Source: Mycobacterium sp. (GTDB lineage Bacteria > Actinomycetota > Actinomycetes > Mycobacteriales > Mycobacteriaceae). From it: a DNA stretch of 64,000 nt. Under the pieces are notes generated by a model. That model was given only the letters and a program-made list of their open reading frames with translations, ran no database searches and was not told the origin of the DNA. The stretch covers positions 188 through 64,187 of the forward strand of contig NZ_PKEK01000010.1 in the NCBI RefSeq assembly GCF_002863225.1. Direction: 5' to 3'. The position numbers and the translations under genes are program-made. This document shows positions 1-12,952 of this stretch, in pieces (position 1 is the stretch's first letter; each line of letters opens with the position of its first letter).

Positions 1-947
1 CCCGTCGATCCGGTGTCACCAGTGGCACCCGTCGCCCCAGTGGCGCCCGTTGCACCCGTGGCACCGGTCGCGCCGGTTTCACCGGTGGCACCAGTCGATC
101 CCGTCGCACCCGTCGATCCGGTGTCACCAGTGGCACCCGTCGCCCCAGTGGCGCCCGTTGCACCCGTGGCACCGGTCGCACCGGTCGCCCCGGTCGCCCC
201 GGTTTCACCGGTCGCACCAGTCGATCCCGTCGCACCCGTCGATCCGGTGTCACCAGTGGCACCCGTGGACCCCGTCGCCCCAGTGGCGCCCGTTGCACCC
301 GTGGCACCCGTGGCACCGGTCGCCCCGGTTTCACCGGTCGCACCAGTCGATCCCGTCGCACCCGTCGATCCGGTGTCACCAGTGGCACCCGTCGCCCCAG
401 TGGCGCCCGTGGATCCCGTGGCACCGGTCGCACCGGTCGCCCCGGTTTCACCGGTCGCACCAGTCGATCCCGTCGCACCCGTAGCCCCGGTGTCACCGGT
501 CGCACCAGTGGATCCCGTGGCACCGGTGGCACCCGTCGCACCCGTAGATCCGGTCGCGCCAGTCGAACCCGTTGCGCCGGTCGCACCCGTAGCCCCGGTG
601 TCACCGGTCGCACCAGTGGATCCCGTCGCGCCCGTGGAACCCGTCGCACCAGTCGAACCTGTAGCCCCGGTCGCACCCGTAGATCCGGTCGCACCCGTAG
701 CCCCGGTGTCACCGGTCGCACCAGTGGATCCCGTGGCACCCGTCGATCCCGTCGATCCCGTCGCGCCCGTGGCACCCGTCGATCCCGTCGCACCCGTAGA
801 TCCAGTTGCGCCAGTTGCGCCAGTCGAACCCGTAGATCCGGTGGCACCCGTATCACCCGTTGCGCCAGTCGAACCCGTTGCGCCGGTGGAGCCAGTCGCG
901 CCGGTTGCACCCGTGGCACCAGTCGCACCCGTGGCGCCTGTAGCGCC
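1..947 (-). repeat. 9-bp period coding repeat (Gly-X-Thr collagen tract) with higher-order 108-126 bp blocks
   Basis: The antisense ORF 13..1014 shows unbroken xPV periodicity. The block cccgtcgatccggtgtcaccagtggcacccg recurs at 1, 109, 235 and 361. Confidence 0.95.
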
Positions 948-2186
948 AGGGCCACCCGGACCGCCACCGCCGGCATGGCCGTCGTCACCATCCGCTCCGG
1001 CAACCCCGTCGTGACCGAAGATCCCGCCCTGGCCGCCGTCGCCACCGAGCCCACCGTCACCCGCGTAGCCGCCCACACCGCCGACAGCCCCTGGGCCACC
1101 GGCTCCGCCGAAGCCGCCGTTGCCGGCATCGCCGCCGGCGCCACCGTTACCGCCGTTGCCGATAAGCGTTGCGCCATAACCGCCGACGCCGCCATCGCCA
1201 CCGTCACCGCCCGCGTGGCCGGGCCCGCCCGGGACGCCCAGCAACACACCGTTGCTTCCATTGGCACCGCTGGCGCCATCGCCGCCCAGGCCGCCGTCGC
1301 CGCCGTTGCCGAAGAAGAAACCGGTGACGTTGCCGCCGTCACCACCGTCGCCGCCAGCGCCCCCGGTGCCGTCACCCAGCAAAACGCCGGCGCCACCGTC
1401 GCCGCCGTCACCCGCGATGCCGTAAAGGGTGTCGCCACCGTCCCCACCGGCTCCGCCTAACAGCGCATCTCCGCCGTCGCCCGCGTTCCCGAAGTAGGCA
1501 TCGCCACCGGCACCACCCACACCGAAGATGTCGGTGCCGCCGTCTCCGCCGTCACCGAACCACAATCCGCCCGCTTCGCCTGTGGCCGCAGCAAGTGTCC
1601 CACCGTCGATGCCGTCGGCGCCGTTGCCGATCAGGATGCCGGTCCCCCCGATTTGGGACCAGAACAAGTTGAAACTGTTGTCCCACTGGATGGTTAGGGG
1701 ACCCAAGAAGGTCGTGCCGTTGATCCAGTCCTGCTGGAATGCATGAATCGGTTCATAGATGTACGTCTCGTACAGCTGCGCGAAATCGGTCGAGACAGCT
1801 GCCGAGCTCATGGCATCGGGACTCGACACCCCCACGAGCGCGGAGTCGACAAATGACGGGTCGATGTTCAGTGAGCCCAGTGCGGCGTCCACACTCGCCG
1901 GATCGAAGGTTGCGGCGCTGGCCAAGGCGGCATCAAGACTGTCGAGCCAGCTGGTCAGATCGAGAGCGAGTGCGGGGTCGACACTCGAGAGCGAGTTGAT
2001 GATGGGGTCGATAACGAGGTCTTCGATCCCATCGGCTTTGGCCGGCGGGACGCTGAGGATCGGGCCTAGCCCGAAAGTGATGAACGCGCTGGTTGCACCG
2101 CTGAGACCAATGACTTTGCCGACGCCACGCTCTAGCGCCTTACTTGACCGCCGCTTCGCCTTCTTCTTGGCGTGTCGACCAGCCAT
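1..2186 (-). CDS. Secreted collagen-like protein: signal peptide, acidic N-domain, PGRS-like Gly-rich linker, then (Gly-X-Thr)n; 3' end lies beyond the window
   Basis: Hand translation of the minus strand from ATG at 2186 (GAAGGGGAA RBS-like upstream): [13 protein letters not shown]...[28 protein letters not shown]..., then GGDGG/GGNGG repeats, then GAT/GST/GDT/GET triplets from 947 to the window edge. The frame was open at every point I checked. Confidence 0.9.
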
Positions 2187-2502
2187 GGTGTTCCCCTTCG
2201 AACGCGACTTGAGGTCCAGCTGAGACAGGACTCAGTTTTGGCTTTAAACCAGGCTAAAAAGCCTCAGTTTGGCTGAGGCACTGCTAGCCGGGCTCCTCTG
2301 CGATGACCACTGGGTCAAACCCTGATCACTGCAGCCGGCGTCGTGAGAGGCAATCGAAAGACCCTGAGAAAATCCCGTTAAACAGGCCGAAAGGTCCTCC
2401 GGTAAGCAGCCGCGGTGGCGACTGTGGCGGGCACCTCGGGACGCGGCTAGAGCGGTGCCGTTGCAACCACGCATTGCCCCTCCCGGCTTGCAGGTAGATT
2501 CT

Positions 2503-2519
2503 TCTCAGGTTTTGCTAAG
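2503..2519 (+). promoter_or_regulatory. MprA-box-like tandem hexamer (degenerate)
   Basis: TCTCAG-gtttt-GCTAAG. Confidence 0.4.
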
Positions 2520-2707
2520 GTACGACTTTGTGGGCAATCCCACAATCGAAATGCTCCAAATTCTCGGAGGAATTTTTCTACAGGTCGCTGAACAGGGATT
2601 TTGAGCGCGCAACCCTCTATCCCGCGGGTCGGAGCGGGCGGCAAACCACTCCCCTGGACCCATCGACGAGCTCCCACTCAAGCCGGGGCAACTCGACCTG
2701 ACCACTT

Positions 2708-11143: not shown

Positions 11144-11209
11144 TTTCGCACAGACGCTCGCATCATCGGTCGTCGCCGTGTCGCCTCTCCGCACGTCACC
11201 GGTCGACAG

Positions 11210-11256
11210 CTGAGAAGAATCTGAGCTGTTTAGCAAACTCCTAAGCTAAACCTCAG
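11210..11256. promoter_or_regulatory. Two MprA-box-like hexamer pairs upstream of the 11303 gene
   Basis: 11210-11226 reads GCTCAG-N5-TCTCAG on the minus strand; 11240-11256 reads CCTAAG-N5-CCTCAG on the plus strand. Confidence 0.5.
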
Positions 11257-11302
11257 GTATGTTATGTCCGACTAGTCGGATGAAACGTCCAAGGAGATCG
11301 CT

Positions 11303-12952
11303 GTGACCCGTACTTCTCGTCCTGCCATCAGCGGCGGAATCGCCCTGGTCAGCGCCAGCCTGATCGCGATCACCCCCACCGCGGCGCCGCCGCACCACAT
11401 CCTTGATCTGCCGGTCCAGCTAACCACCATCGAGCACGGCGACTTGTTCTTCCCCGAGGTCGGATGGGACGAAATGGTCGCCAACACGACCGCCAACTGG
11501 AACGGCCTGATGGAGATGTACGGGCAGAGCACCAACCTGTTCTCGCTGCCTTCGGCCGTCTACTCCGAGGGTGTGCCGAAGGTCTTCAACGACCTCGTGA
11601 CGCAGCTGCAGGCGCTCGCCACCTACTCGGCCGCAGTGACCGCGCAGAACGGCGCACTGGACCCGAACACCCCGCTACCGCCGCTACCCGACTTCTTCTC
11701 AAACCCGGTGACCAACCCAGTGTCGGTGCTGACCCTCGTCCTGCAGAACGCGATCGCATCGAACTTCGCGTCGAACGCCGCCCAGGTCGGCTGGGAGGGC
11801 ATTCGCCAGAACATGCTTCCGTCGTTCAACGACATCGGCACCCAATTCAGCAGCATCTCCACCCAACTCCAGACGCTGTTCACGGACGGGACCTTCTCGG
11901 TCGACGCGTTCCAGACCGATCTGACCGACATCGGCAACGACCTGACGGCGATAGGCGGTTACTTGTCGCTGGCGCCTTCGACGATTCTGAACAGCTACCT
12001 CAACGGCTACCCGATCGTCTCGGCCAGCCCTGACGGCTTGAACGGGATCGTGCCGTCAGTCGGGGACGCCTACACACTGAACGCTCCGTTCAACGAAACG
12101 ACGAATGTCGCCATCACGCCGTATTTCGGCCTGCTCACCAATCCGTTTGCGGCGTTCACTGAGAATGTCGGCGGGTTCGGCGACGGCGCCTCGCCGAGCT
12201 TCCTGGGTACCGCTCCGATGATCACCGGCACTCTGGCGTCGCTGCTTCAGACTCAGCAGACATTGGCCCACGAACTGCTGACGGTGACGTCGACGATCCC
12301 GGGCAGCGGTGTCGACGCGCCGCCGGTCACGGACGCGCTGACCATCCTGGGTCCGGACAGCATCAACATCGACCTCGACCTACTGGGAATCCCCGTCGTC
12401 GGTGACGTGATCAGCGGGATCAACACCGCCATCGACTCGGTCAACTCCGCAGTGAGCGAACTCATCGGCTACCTCAACACTTTCGTGAGCGGCACGTTGG
12501 ACGCTGTCGTCAACCCCTTCATTGGAGCCGTCGACGGTGTCATCGACCTGATCAACGCGATTCCCGGAGTCGACATCGATGCGATCGGTGAGGTCAGCCT
12601 GACGATTCCGACGATCCCGGAAATTCCGAGCATCCCGACTGACATCGCGGGAACGATCGGGCTGCCGGATGTAACCGCACCAGGTGTGCCCGCGTACGTC
12701 TGGGATTTGGCCATGCACCAGATGGCCATTCTCGGCAGCATGGCCAGCATCGCCGCACCGGTCACCGGAACGGTGAGCAGCGACGGCATCGGCAACTTCC
12801 TTGCGCCGGACGCGATCATGAATCTCGGTTCCATTTTCAACGCCACCATGGAGAGCATCCTGGGCGACGGACCGTTGGCGATCACCGCGACTTTGCCGCT
12901 CGACTGGACGGACCTGATTGCCACCAGCCTGGCGAACTTGTTCACCGGCTGA
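11303..12952 (+). CDS. Secreted acidic mycobacterial envelope protein, GjpA-like family
   Basis: N-terminus RPAISGGIALVSASLIAITP followed by VQLT, W..M..NT.ANW, LNGY and GLL segments, as I recall for this family; family call from memory only. Confidence 0.55.
   Translation: MTRTSRPAISGGIALVSASLIAITPTAAPPHHILDLPVQLTTIEHGDLFFPEVGWDEMVANTTANWNGLMEMYGQSTNLFSLPSAVYSEGVPKVFNDLVTQLQALATYSAAVTAQNGALDPNTPLPPLPDFFSNPVTNPVSVLTLVLQNAIASNFASNAAQVGWEGIRQNMLPSFNDIGTQFSSISTQLQTLFTDGTFSVDAFQTDLTDIGNDLTAIGGYLSLAPSTILNSYLNGYPIVSASPDGLNGIVPSVGDAYTLNAPFNETTNVAITPYFGLLTNPFAAFTENVGGFGDGASPSFLGTAPMITGTLASLLQTQQTLAHELLTVTSTIPGSGVDAPPVTDALTILGPDSINIDLDLLGIPVVGDVISGINTAIDSVNSAVSELIGYLNTFVSGTLDAVVNPFIGAVDGVIDLINAIPGVDIDAIGEVSLTIPTIPEIPSIPTDIAGTIGLPDVTAPGVPAYVWDLAMHQMAILGSMASIAAPVTGTVSSDGIGNFLAPDAIMNLGSIFNATMESILGDGPLAITATLPLDWTDLIATSLANLFTG

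Follow-up and report, generated by a model that had tools for sequence, protein, structure and literature searches.

The left end of the 64,000-nucleotide stretch of Mycobacterium sp. DNA analyzed here (contig NZ_PKEK01000010.1; hereafter, the window) raises the question of whether a gene for a secreted collagen-like protein, a divergently oriented gene for a multi-module glycosyltransferase (GT) and two genes for S-adenosylmethionine (SAM)-dependent methyltransferases belong together in a system for protein glycosylation. An earlier note on this DNA, made without database searches, had proposed that the locus builds a methylated and possibly acylated O-glycan on the threonines of the collagen-like protein. 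On balance, our results tip slightly in favor of a small protein-glycosylation island formed by these four genes. Our confidence in the functional link between the GT and the collagen-like protein is higher than that in this reading as a whole, and it is lower where the exact acceptor, the identity of the sugar or its methylation is concerned. In agreement with the earlier note, which knew of no such system, the searchable full-text literature yielded no account of a collagen-like glycoprotein in mycobacteria or of the present GT family.

The collagen-like protein

The collagen-like gene starts at an ATG at position 2186 of the minus strand, with the Shine-Dalgarno-like sequence AAGGGGAA directly upstream, and is cut by the left edge of the window (Table 1). 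The proposal of a secreted protein with at least 105 Gly-X-Thr triplets, encoded divergently from a multi-domain GT with tetratricopeptide repeats (TPR), was borne out: all 105 of the 105 triplets were uninterrupted and carried threonine at position Y, the N-terminus was signal-like and the two genes lay 835 bp apart. Position X was occupied by alanine (67 triplets), serine (26), aspartate (8) or glutamate (4), proline was absent, and no trimerization domain was visible. The protein matched the Pfam family Collagen (PF01391) with an E-value of 4.8e-24 and 84 bits, against a cutoff of 27.2, and periods of 18, 45, 108 and 126 bp were present at the DNA level of the repeat run. A plus-strand "PVAPVA" open reading frame (ORF) at 13–1014 (333 amino acids, aa) was rejected as a gene, as it is the antisense shadow of these repeats. 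The protein's C-terminal end lies outside the window; short-read contigs break in the repeats, and the homologue in locus L024 also runs off its locus. Over positions 1–577, the depth of short-read contigs was approximately 2–4-fold that of the flanks, and assemblies break there.

As read from the sequence, the N-terminus comprises a basic n-region and a moderately hydrophobic h-region, with a likely cleavage site at PPAKA|DG. It is followed by a globular domain, which we named colN, and by a Gly-rich, PGRS-like region of 208 aa with 50% glycine and 22 GGxGG motifs, which was absent from the earlier note. Despite this PGRS-like composition, no match of the window protein to Pfam PGRS (PF21526) was found at E ≤ 0.01; many colN homologues do carry PF21526, and some are annotated as "PGRS repeat-containing protein". 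Pfam likewise gave no match to the PE domain (PF00934), and the protein is therefore not a PE_PGRS protein. With 60 homologues, most of them truncated, colN is a rare domain; tblastn matches to it were present in loci L007, L009, L024, L064, L069, L078 and L084–L090. A junction motif like that of the window precedes the collagen run in L007, L014, L078, L084 and L087. In L009, L014 and L078, the collagen repeats of the homologue reach its C-terminus and no globular C-domain follows; that of L064 ends in a non-collagen tail of only about 40 residues.

With regard to expression, an environmental metatranscriptome (run X27) contained one 198-nt contig that matched positions 1006–1203 exactly, in the Gly-rich part of the collagen-like gene, which is a weak hint of its transcription; no other gene of the island was covered in the same run. 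Runs labelled "RNA?" were discarded as evidence of expression because their flat depth of about 11-fold across all genes looks like DNA.

The glycosyltransferase

The GT comprises 883 aa when read from the GTG at 3022, the start chosen by gene callers, or 941 aa from the GTG at 2848. Four modules were distinguished: a GT2 module (A), a TPR module (B), a Rossmann-like module of unassigned function (C) and a Glyco_trans_1_2-like, GT-B-like module (D). Module A matched Pfam GT2 with 36.3 bits (cutoff 23.3). Its only sequence relatives with a solved structure were GmaR, a flagellin O-GlcNAc (N-acetylglucosamine) transferase (profile E = 3.5e-7), and the peptide S-glycosyltransferases SunS and ThuS, with which it has the motifs IV(K/R)NE, DTGS-D-T, W-N-F and IDAD(D/E) in common. 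In particular, the IDADD of the window protein aligned with the IDADE of GmaR, and A97, D98 and D99 were invariant across an alignment of 17 family members. Because of this resemblance to protein glycosyltransferases, the GT2 module looks protein-directed.

In module B, TPR_16 scored below its cutoff; profile matches to designed consensus TPR proteins reached E = 8e-10, and in the AlphaFold2 (AF2) model described below, aa 179–390 contained 12 helices, the first nine or so with predicted local distance difference test (pLDDT) values of about 90 or above. Neither Pfam nor the Protein Data Bank (PDB) gave an assignment for module C. In module D, Glyco_trans_1_2 scored below its gathering threshold in the window GT and above the cutoff in the paralogue P0028. 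An AF2 model of modules B and C, built on a 74-sequence alignment, reached a pLDDT of 78 and a predicted template modelling (pTM) score of 0.71, and showed a superhelix of TPRs leading into a Rossmann-like alpha/beta domain. The top Foldseek matches of the model in the PDB were SPINDLY, OGT and Xanthomonas XcOGT, all TPR-bearing protein O-glycosyltransferases (E of about 1e-7), which lends weak support to a resemblance between the modelled B-C fold and this class of enzymes.

Pairwise comparison of paralogues identified B-C as the constant core of the family, on which A, D, Methyltransf_24 or sulfotransferase domains are exchanged. The forms found were A-B-C (about 590 aa), D-B-C (about 730 aa), A-B-C-A-B-C (1200 aa), A-B-C plus Methyltransf_24 and A-B-C plus sulfotransferase. 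A constant B-C with swapped catalytic modules fits a substrate-docking scaffold; judging from the fusions to a sulfotransferase, the products may be sulfated in some lineages. Representatives of the shuffled forms include P0059 (M. asiaticum), P0063 and P0120, P0002 (M. paragordonae) and P0028-type proteins. As no hydrophobic segment, either transmembrane or signal, was found in the GT or in the Methyltransf_24 and TylF proteins, all three enzymes are predicted to be cytoplasmic.

Linkage of the glycosyltransferase family to Gly-rich and collagen-like genes

A scan of one genome per species (genome_contigs) yielded 347 relatives of the GT, and the 77 best loci were analyzed; those named at genus level belonged to Mycobacterium, Mycolicibacter or Mycolicibacterium, the remainder being metagenome-assembled genomes. 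In the closest genomes, the GT was 63–76% identical to that of the window, and ackA and pta were about 83–92% identical; since no GT relative exceeded 76%, the window's own species is absent from the scanned genomes. Strongly Gly-rich ORFs, defined by at least 50% glycine over 90 residues, were counted within 2.5 kb of the GT module (near; 420 kb of sequence) and beyond 2.5 kb (far; 839 kb). Thirty such ORFs were near and 5 far (binomial P = 2e-10), and among those with at least 5 collagen-type triplets, 25 were near and 1 far (P = 2e-11). Thus, Gly-rich or collagen-like genes were enriched 12- to 50-fold beside the GT, with adjacency in 30 of the 77 loci. Furthermore, the neighbors fell into three distinct architectures, located at unrelated chromosomal sites and distributed over three genera. 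At the level of gene order and sequence, these observations support a conserved link, far above chance, between the GT family and Gly-rich secreted proteins in Mycobacterium, Mycolicibacter and Mycolicibacterium.

In the first architecture, which is that of the window, a signal-peptide colN-PGRS-collagen gene is divergent from the GT (L007, L009, L024, L078); variants are L064, where a colN-type gene lies 3 kb from the GT on its other side, and L069, where the colN-PGRS protein has almost no collagen-type triplets. In the second, a gene encoding PE and PGRS regions lies directly upstream of the GT on the same strand and ends in a conserved GAQGAQGAQGAQGAHGAT tail (L012, L013, L017–L022, L031, L034) or, for L014, with a run of about 150 G-X-T triplets. 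Pfam confirmed both PE and PGRS on L013, L014, L022 and L031, and PE also on the GT-adjacent gene of L056. In the third, found in fast growers, a signal-peptide PGRS/collagen protein is encoded convergently and downstream (L038, L043, L048, L062, L071–L073, L077, L079, L081).

The tails of the PE_PGRS proteins follow the consensus G(I/V)(L/F)GAQGAQGAQGAQGAHGATG, directly before the stop, in L012, L013, L018–L020, L022 and L031, and are more divergent in L017 and L034. The tailed genes lie approximately 700–1100 bp upstream of the GT start, which stands at position 10001 of the loci, and the L014 gene spans 6830–9514. Species with such a collagen-like-tailed PE_PGRS gene upstream of a GT paralogue include M. 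gordonae, M. bohemicum, M. helveticum, M. interjectum and M. terramassiliense. Culturable organisms in which a GT-neighbor pair is present include M. gordonae DSM 44160 (L031), M. interjectum, M. asiaticum DSM 44297, Mycolicibacterium austroafricanum DSM 44191 (L071) and M. parafortuitum.

Several of the related islands carry further genes for candidate modifying enzymes. That of L024 includes an extra GT2, an FkbM methyltransferase and a second GT2-TPR protein, and that of L007 three GT2 genes, TylF, DegT, an oxidoreductase and an acetyltransferase (hexapeptide transferase). The L009 island contains a further GT2, a Methyltransf_24 protein and a prolyl-4-hydroxylase (P4H)-like 2-oxoglutarate (2OG)-Fe(II) oxygenase. 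The latter, a 618-aa protein with a PF13640 domain (12260–14116, plus strand), is encoded beside the GT and a collagen-like gene with GPQ and GLQ repeats, and it may hydroxylate the collagen-like protein.

Since the 77 loci had been collected through the GT, a reciprocal sample was drawn through the colN domain, which gave 58 loci (7 from assemblies and 51 metagenome contigs), 31 of them of at least 8 kb. Only two of these loci contained the GT family, namely L084, with (GPT)~20, and L087, with (GPT)4, a Methyltransf_24 protein 76% identical to that of the window and a D-B-C GT. When only the 31 longer loci were compared, 2 of the 3 with at least four consecutive G-X-T triplets had the GT, against 0 of the 28 without such runs (Fisher P = 0.006). 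L084 (1–11800 and 18090–20693) contains six tandem colN-PGRS-(GPT)~20 genes with YncE/NHL-like beta-propeller repeats, flanking two adjacent A-B-C GT genes; the layout of these genes is that of a BclA-like (GPT)n stalk bearing a propeller head.

The divergent intergenic region

The region between the collagen-like and GT genes contains a 20-nt element, TCTYAGGTNNNGYTAAGGTA, which occurred once in the window (2503–2522; 0 expected by chance). The same element was present in L007 (5490–5509), L009 (9626–9645), L024 (9443–9462), L078 (9507–9526) and L087 (9651–9670, minus strand), so that it stands upstream of colN-type collagen genes, in the same orientation throughout, in the divergent regions of six loci including the window. 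It may be a response-regulator site or a promoter element common to the collagen-like gene and the GT or methyltransferase gene. No sigma-70-like promoter was found in this region. Two overlapping hairpin-plus-T-run motifs, one per strand, occupy 2218–2279, which is 30–90 bp upstream of the collagen start codon, and may be a 5′ untranslated-region structure or a bidirectional terminator-like element.

Methyltransferases and flanking genes

The two methyltransferase genes described in the earlier note were confirmed by Pfam (Methyltransf_24, E = 4e-6; TylF, E = 4e-98). The TylF profile was matched with 328 bits over positions 41–263 of 264, and the likely true gene (6566–7339) is enclosed in a longer ORF (6566–7657). 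Orthologues of TylF, 77–85% identical, were found in 8 of the 77 GT loci, and a Gly-rich neighbor was present in 5 of these 8. Those of the Methyltransf_24 protein, 70–76% identical, adjoined the GT or the collagen gene in L034, L036 and L087, and the GT of M. asiaticum (P0059/L010) carries a more distant homologue as a fused domain. Given this distribution, both enzymes are treated here as putative variable tailoring modules.

Three further genes that the earlier note had included in the system could not be retained, as conserved linkage to the GT was lacking. HtrA, the 549-aa protein and AT3-SGNH co-occurred with the GT only in three related ackA-pta loci (L008, L024, L051), and they are regarded as neighbors, probably bystanders. 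The AT3-SGNH acyltransferase gene is present, as noted earlier, but it is inactivated in the window strain: a single-C deletion near 9293 (9285–9300, CATCCGCAG to CATCGCAG) shifts the frame inside the SGNH domain. The same deletion was found in an independent metagenome contig (L001), and L002, L003 and run X16 have an uninterrupted gene of 724 aa; the 1-bp deletion is thus a polymorphism among strains, and the gene is a pseudogene in the window strain. Its nearest NCBIfam model was SucT, far below the cutoff of that model, and among the 77 GT loci it stood directly beside the GT only in L051; its membership of the system is doubtful. Overall, the earlier interpretation found partial support.

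The HtrA protease gene was confirmed by matches to Trypsin_2 (E = 2e-30) and PDZ_2 (E = 8e-14). The protein scored below the cutoff of the mycobacterial HtrA equivalog and is therefore a paralogue; close homologues were near the GT only in the ackA-syntenic loci L024 and L051. The 549-aa protein matched no Pfam or NCBIfam family. Twenty-six relatives (one full-length cluster) were found among 1.84 billion representative proteins, the named ones all being "hypothetical protein". The earlier label "GjpA-like" was supported by no result, and a literature search returned unrelated acronyms only.

Beyond the 549-aa gene, the backbone resumes with ackA, pta and fgd1, followed by a housekeeping stretch (MmpL, fadE, purT, purA, ClpB). 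Positions 17300–64000 are ordinary mycobacterial backbone with genes for an MBL-fold protein, three luciferase-like monooxygenases, an LCM methyltransferase, two NmrA-like proteins, MmpL (29683–32685), acyl-CoA dehydrogenases, a GH5 cellulase-like protein, a Cys/Met pyridoxal-phosphate enzyme, PurT, PurA and ClpB. Neither Rfam, at gathering thresholds, nor tRNA scans gave a match in the whole window. The organism is present in drinking-water and biofilm metagenomes.

Table 1. Features at the left end of the window, with coordinates, strand and the observations on which each is based.
Feature	Coordinates	Strand	Basis or remark
Collagen-like/PGRS-like secreted protein gene, 5′ part	1–2186	−	At least 728 aa; translation, Pfam Collagen, N-domain homologues
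Signal-peptide-like N-terminus (aa 1–51)	2034–2186	−	Read from sequence
N-terminal globular domain colN (about aa 52–205)	1572–2033	−	No Pfam family; 60 homologues
PGRS-like Gly-rich region (aa 206–413)	948–1571	−	Composition; ends in a 25-residue junction
105 Gly-X-Thr triplets (aa 414–728)	3–947	−	X = A, S, D or E
Divergent intergenic region, collagen-like gene/GT, 835 bp	2187–3021		Local GC 0.59–0.61
Conserved element TCTCAGGTTTTGCTAAGGTA, two AGGT half-sites 11 bp apart	2503–2522	+	Once in window
Four-module GT, 883 aa	3022–5673	+	Pfam, module shuffling among paralogues, PDB sequence matches, AF2 and Foldseek
Module A, GT2 (aa 1–178)	3022–3555	+	Pfam GT2, E = 6.8e-9
Module B, TPR (aa 179–390)	3556–4191	+	Weak Pfam TPR, consensus-TPR profile matches, AF2
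Module C, Rossmann-like, unassigned function (aa 391–575)	4192–4746	+	AF2
Module D, Glyco_trans_1_2-like (GT-B-like) (aa 598–883)	4813–5670	+	Weak Pfam match
Methyltransf_24-type SAM methyltransferase, 265 aa	5782–6579	+	Pfam, just above cutoff
TylF-family O-methyltransferase, 257 aa	6566–7339	−	Pfam TylF
AT3-SGNH acyltransferase gene, frameshifted	7578–9751	+	Pfam domains split across two frames; intact alleles aligned
HtrA-family serine protease, one transmembrane segment and PDZ	9854–11143	+	Pfam, NCBIfam
549-aa orphan protein, signal-like hydrophobic N-terminus	11303–12952	+	No family match

Proposed mechanism

By analogy with known enzymes, the soluble GT would act in the cytoplasm, its TPR and C scaffold binding the extended Gly-rich polypeptide before export. 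Module A would transfer a first sugar from a nucleotide sugar onto the hydroxyls of Thr, possibly also of Ser, in the G-X-T repeats, module D would add a further sugar, and the TylF-type and Methyltransf_24 enzymes would methylate the sugar or sugars. The modified protein would then be exported via its N-terminal signal peptide and assemble, at the mycomembrane or beyond it, into a collagen-like fibre that is acidic, free of Pro and densely glycosylated. A triple helix lacking both Pro and hydroxyproline may owe its stability to the glycosylated Thr. In work on Riftia cuticle collagen, (Gly-Pro-Thr)n peptides reportedly require glycosylated Thr to form a triple helix; as the window repeats are Pro-free, glycosylation may be structurally required here. 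Elsewhere, the same GT family would serve other PGRS-type proteins with collagen-like segments, including, in other species, PE_PGRS proteins, for which export would be by type VII secretion.

Evidence against this assignment and alternative explanations

A number of findings weigh against a protein-glycosylation island. Most collagen-bearing loci were ascertained through the GT, and the colN-ascertained sample provides only 2–3 informative positives in loci that are not phylogenetically independent. Non-PE signal-peptide PGRS proteins with collagen-like C-terminal tails of 5–10 triplets, for instance one ending in GTPGTPGTPGANEP before the stop, were observed in L092, L093, L096, L099, L109, L115/L116 and L139, with no GT nearby. 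Within 10 kb of several such short-tailed proteins (L096, L099, L109, L115 and L139) no GT was found, which rules out that any short collagen-like tail predicts the GT. Thr in G-X-T is uncertain as a universal acceptor because G-A-Q makes up most of the PE_PGRS tails, which contain only one Thr. As regards the enzyme, the TPR and Glyco_trans_1_2 matches of the window GT were below the Pfam gathering thresholds, and module C lacks a DxD motif and may be inactive. A full-length AF2 model of the GT, based on 17 sequences, reached a pLDDT of 52.7 and was judged unusable, and the Foldseek matches of the B-C model had template modelling scores of only 0.25–0.36 with a root-mean-square deviation above 20 Å, the match being mainly to the TPR part. 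Finally, every catalytic step of the proposed mechanism is drawn by analogy, and the mechanism would require Sec export of a heavily pre-glycosylated substrate.

The remaining points on this side belong to the most serious alternative, unlikely in our view, that the GT and the methyltransferases act on a non-protein glycoconjugate, either a methylated glycolipid (lipooligosaccharide, LOS; glycopeptidolipid, GPL; phenolic glycolipid, PGL) or a cytoplasmic polymethylated polysaccharide, with the collagen-like gene merely adjacent. Mycobacterial TylF-family enzymes of known function methylate glycolipid sugars. The cassette closest to that of the window, GT(ABCD)-methyltransferase-TylF-GT(ABC), lies between serA/leuB and ilvC (L005/L083, 10001–17286; L036, 7189–14752), its methyltransferase being of the MycE_N type in L005/L083 and a Methyltransf_24 homologue in L036, and no Gly-rich gene was found within 10 kb of it in L005/L083 and L036; its substrate may be encoded elsewhere. 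L006, which has a GT with module D as well as TylF, probably carries the same cassette, also without a Gly-rich gene. More generally, the earlier note had held that GT and methyltransferase genes lying mostly without a collagen neighbor would speak against it, and 45 of the 77 GT loci (about 60%) indeed had no Gly-rich neighbor within 10 kb; this figure is tempered by the several GT paralogues held by these genomes and by the proximity of the GT to a contig end in 10 of the 77 loci, and it speaks only in part against the earlier proposal. An MmpL transporter is encoded 17 kb away in the window, but it is part of the conserved backbone past ackA-pta-fgd1, and the island contains no pks, fadD, papA, acyl-carrier or polyprenyl genes. 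Against a glycolipid substrate also speak the solved relatives of the GT2 module, which are only protein or peptide glycosyltransferases, the TPR scaffold typical of protein-directed enzymes, the recurrence of the linkage in three independent architectures and the P4H-like oxygenase of the L009 sister island.

A second alternative, which we consider rather improbable, is that the target of the GT family is not Thr in collagen-type G-X-T repeats but PGRS-type Gly-rich proteins as a whole, or some other feature common to them, so that the collagen run is incidental to recognition. Five GT-adjacent Gly-rich genes (L010, L016, L047, L056, L080) had no collagen-type run in the available sequence, although those of L010 and L047 are cut by contig ends. 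The PE_PGRS neighbors have only about 7 triplets and a single Thr, and those of the fast growers are mostly GTGGTGG-type PGRS with interspersed collagen segments. However, collagen-type triplets were present in 25 of the 30 adjacent Gly-rich genes and in none of the 4 PGRS genes more than 4 kb from a GT, and the GT was absent from all 28 evaluable colN-PGRS loci without G-X-T runs. That there is no functional link at all, the ackA-pta region being a recombination hot spot in which horizontally acquired genes sit side by side by chance or hitch-hiking, is very improbable: the island does have a GC content of 0.59–0.64, below the 0.64–0.70 found mostly over most of the remaining window, the gene content between the collagen gene and ackA does differ among the related loci L008, L024 and L051, and L087 does carry an ISL3 transposase, but the pairing recurs at unrelated sites in three gene orders and three genera, six divergent pairs have the intergenic element in common, and the enrichment statistics argue against chance.

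Significance

Returning to a protein-glycosylation island, we tentatively extend it beyond the window, although we would put this broader proposal a little short of even chances: Mycobacteriaceae may hold a cytoplasmic, nucleotide-sugar-dependent O-glycosylation, built on a TPR plus Rossmann-like scaffold with swapped modules, that decorates collagen-like G-X-T/G-X-Q segments of PGRS-type proteins, Sec-signal and PE_PGRS alike, and gives rise to glycosylated collagen-like surface fibres in non-sporulating environmental and opportunistic mycobacteria. To our knowledge, no protein glycosylation has been established in mycobacteria other than the O-mannosylation carried out at the membrane by Pmt, and a soluble GT2-TPR enzyme for collagen-like and PGRS-type proteins would, if confirmed, be a mechanistically different second route. 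The GT paralogues located downstream of PE_PGRS genes in named species offer a handle on PGRS proteins, whose function and modification state have long been obscure. Likewise, in water systems, an acidic fibre with a dense glycan coat could influence how mycobacteria adhere, form biofilms and tolerate disinfectants, as well as their antigenicity. The Pro-free (G-X-T)105 is also a natural test of whether glycosylated threonine stabilizes the collagen helix, with relevance to collagen biomaterials.

Comparison with known systems

With regard to Pmt, a membrane GT-C enzyme that uses polyprenyl-P-mannose as donor and acts during Sec translocation, the likeness lies in the O-glycosylation of Thr/Ser-rich secreted proteins; the window enzyme, in contrast, is a soluble GT2-TPR protein, which implies a cytoplasmic, nucleotide-sugar-dependent reaction before export. 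The window TylF belongs to the same Pfam family as MtfB–D of GPL and Rv2954c–Rv2956 of PGL synthesis. Those enzymes act on glycolipid sugars and are encoded in clusters with pks or other lipid genes, whereas the window TylF has no lipid genes beside it and neighbors a TPR-GT and a collagen-like gene. Like mycobacterial PE_PGRS and PGRS proteins, the window protein has a GGxGG-rich region, and its homologues match PF21526; it differs from PE_PGRS in having no PE domain and in its signal peptide and 105 collagen triplets, the signal peptide in place of PE implying Sec-type rather than ESX export.

The identity of module A to Listeria GmaR and Bacillus SunS/ThuS is low and limited to about 95 residues. 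The substrates of these enzymes are flagellin and a lantibiotic-like peptide, respectively; GmaR also has TPRs, and none of them has a C or D module. OGT, SPINDLY and XcOGT have in common with the window GT a TPR superhelix followed by a Rossmann-like domain. They act on intracellular proteins, and the catalytic module of the window enzyme is GT-A (GT2), not GT41.

In Bacillus anthracis and B. cereus, BclA of the exosporium nap has a G-X-Thr collagen region with multiple O-glycans (rhamnose-anthrose oligosaccharides) that include O-methylated sugars, and these methylated glycans parallel the gene content of the window, GT plus O-methyltransferases. Unlike BclA, the window protein has no exosporium targeting motif, and no rml or ant genes are present in the island. 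The system would work like BclA but is not a BclA family member: its protein begins with a signal peptide and colN and lacks the motif, the host does not sporulate, and a globular C-terminal domain, such as the C1q/TNF-like domain of BclA, was absent from the homologues examined.

The closest precedent, and one that agrees with the Gly-X-Thr glycosylation of BclA-type proteins invoked in the earlier note, is that of Clostridioides difficile, in which SgtA, a GT-A plus TPR enzyme, is encoded next to the exosporium collagen-like glycoprotein BclA3 and was shown in vitro to attach beta-O-GlcNAc to Thr in peptides of the collagen repeats (PMC7157674). Both systems pair a G-X-Thr collagen-like gene with a soluble GT-A/GT2 plus TPR glycosyltransferase. 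Moreover, the N-terminus of SgtA implied by a cloning primer (MITISLCMI...) resembles the ICLNMIVRNE at the start of module A, a likeness judged from this primer. The window differs in that its host is an actinobacterium that forms no spores, its substrate has a signal peptide, a PGRS-like region and Pro-free GAT, GST, GDT and GET triplets instead of GPT, and its GT, with 883 aa against 358 aa for SgtA, has the extra modules C and D and is linked to methyltransferases. Taken together, these comparisons make it plausible that the window encodes a system for the O-glycosylation of collagen repeats that resembles BclA/SgtA, but in another phylum and another protein context than those known so far.

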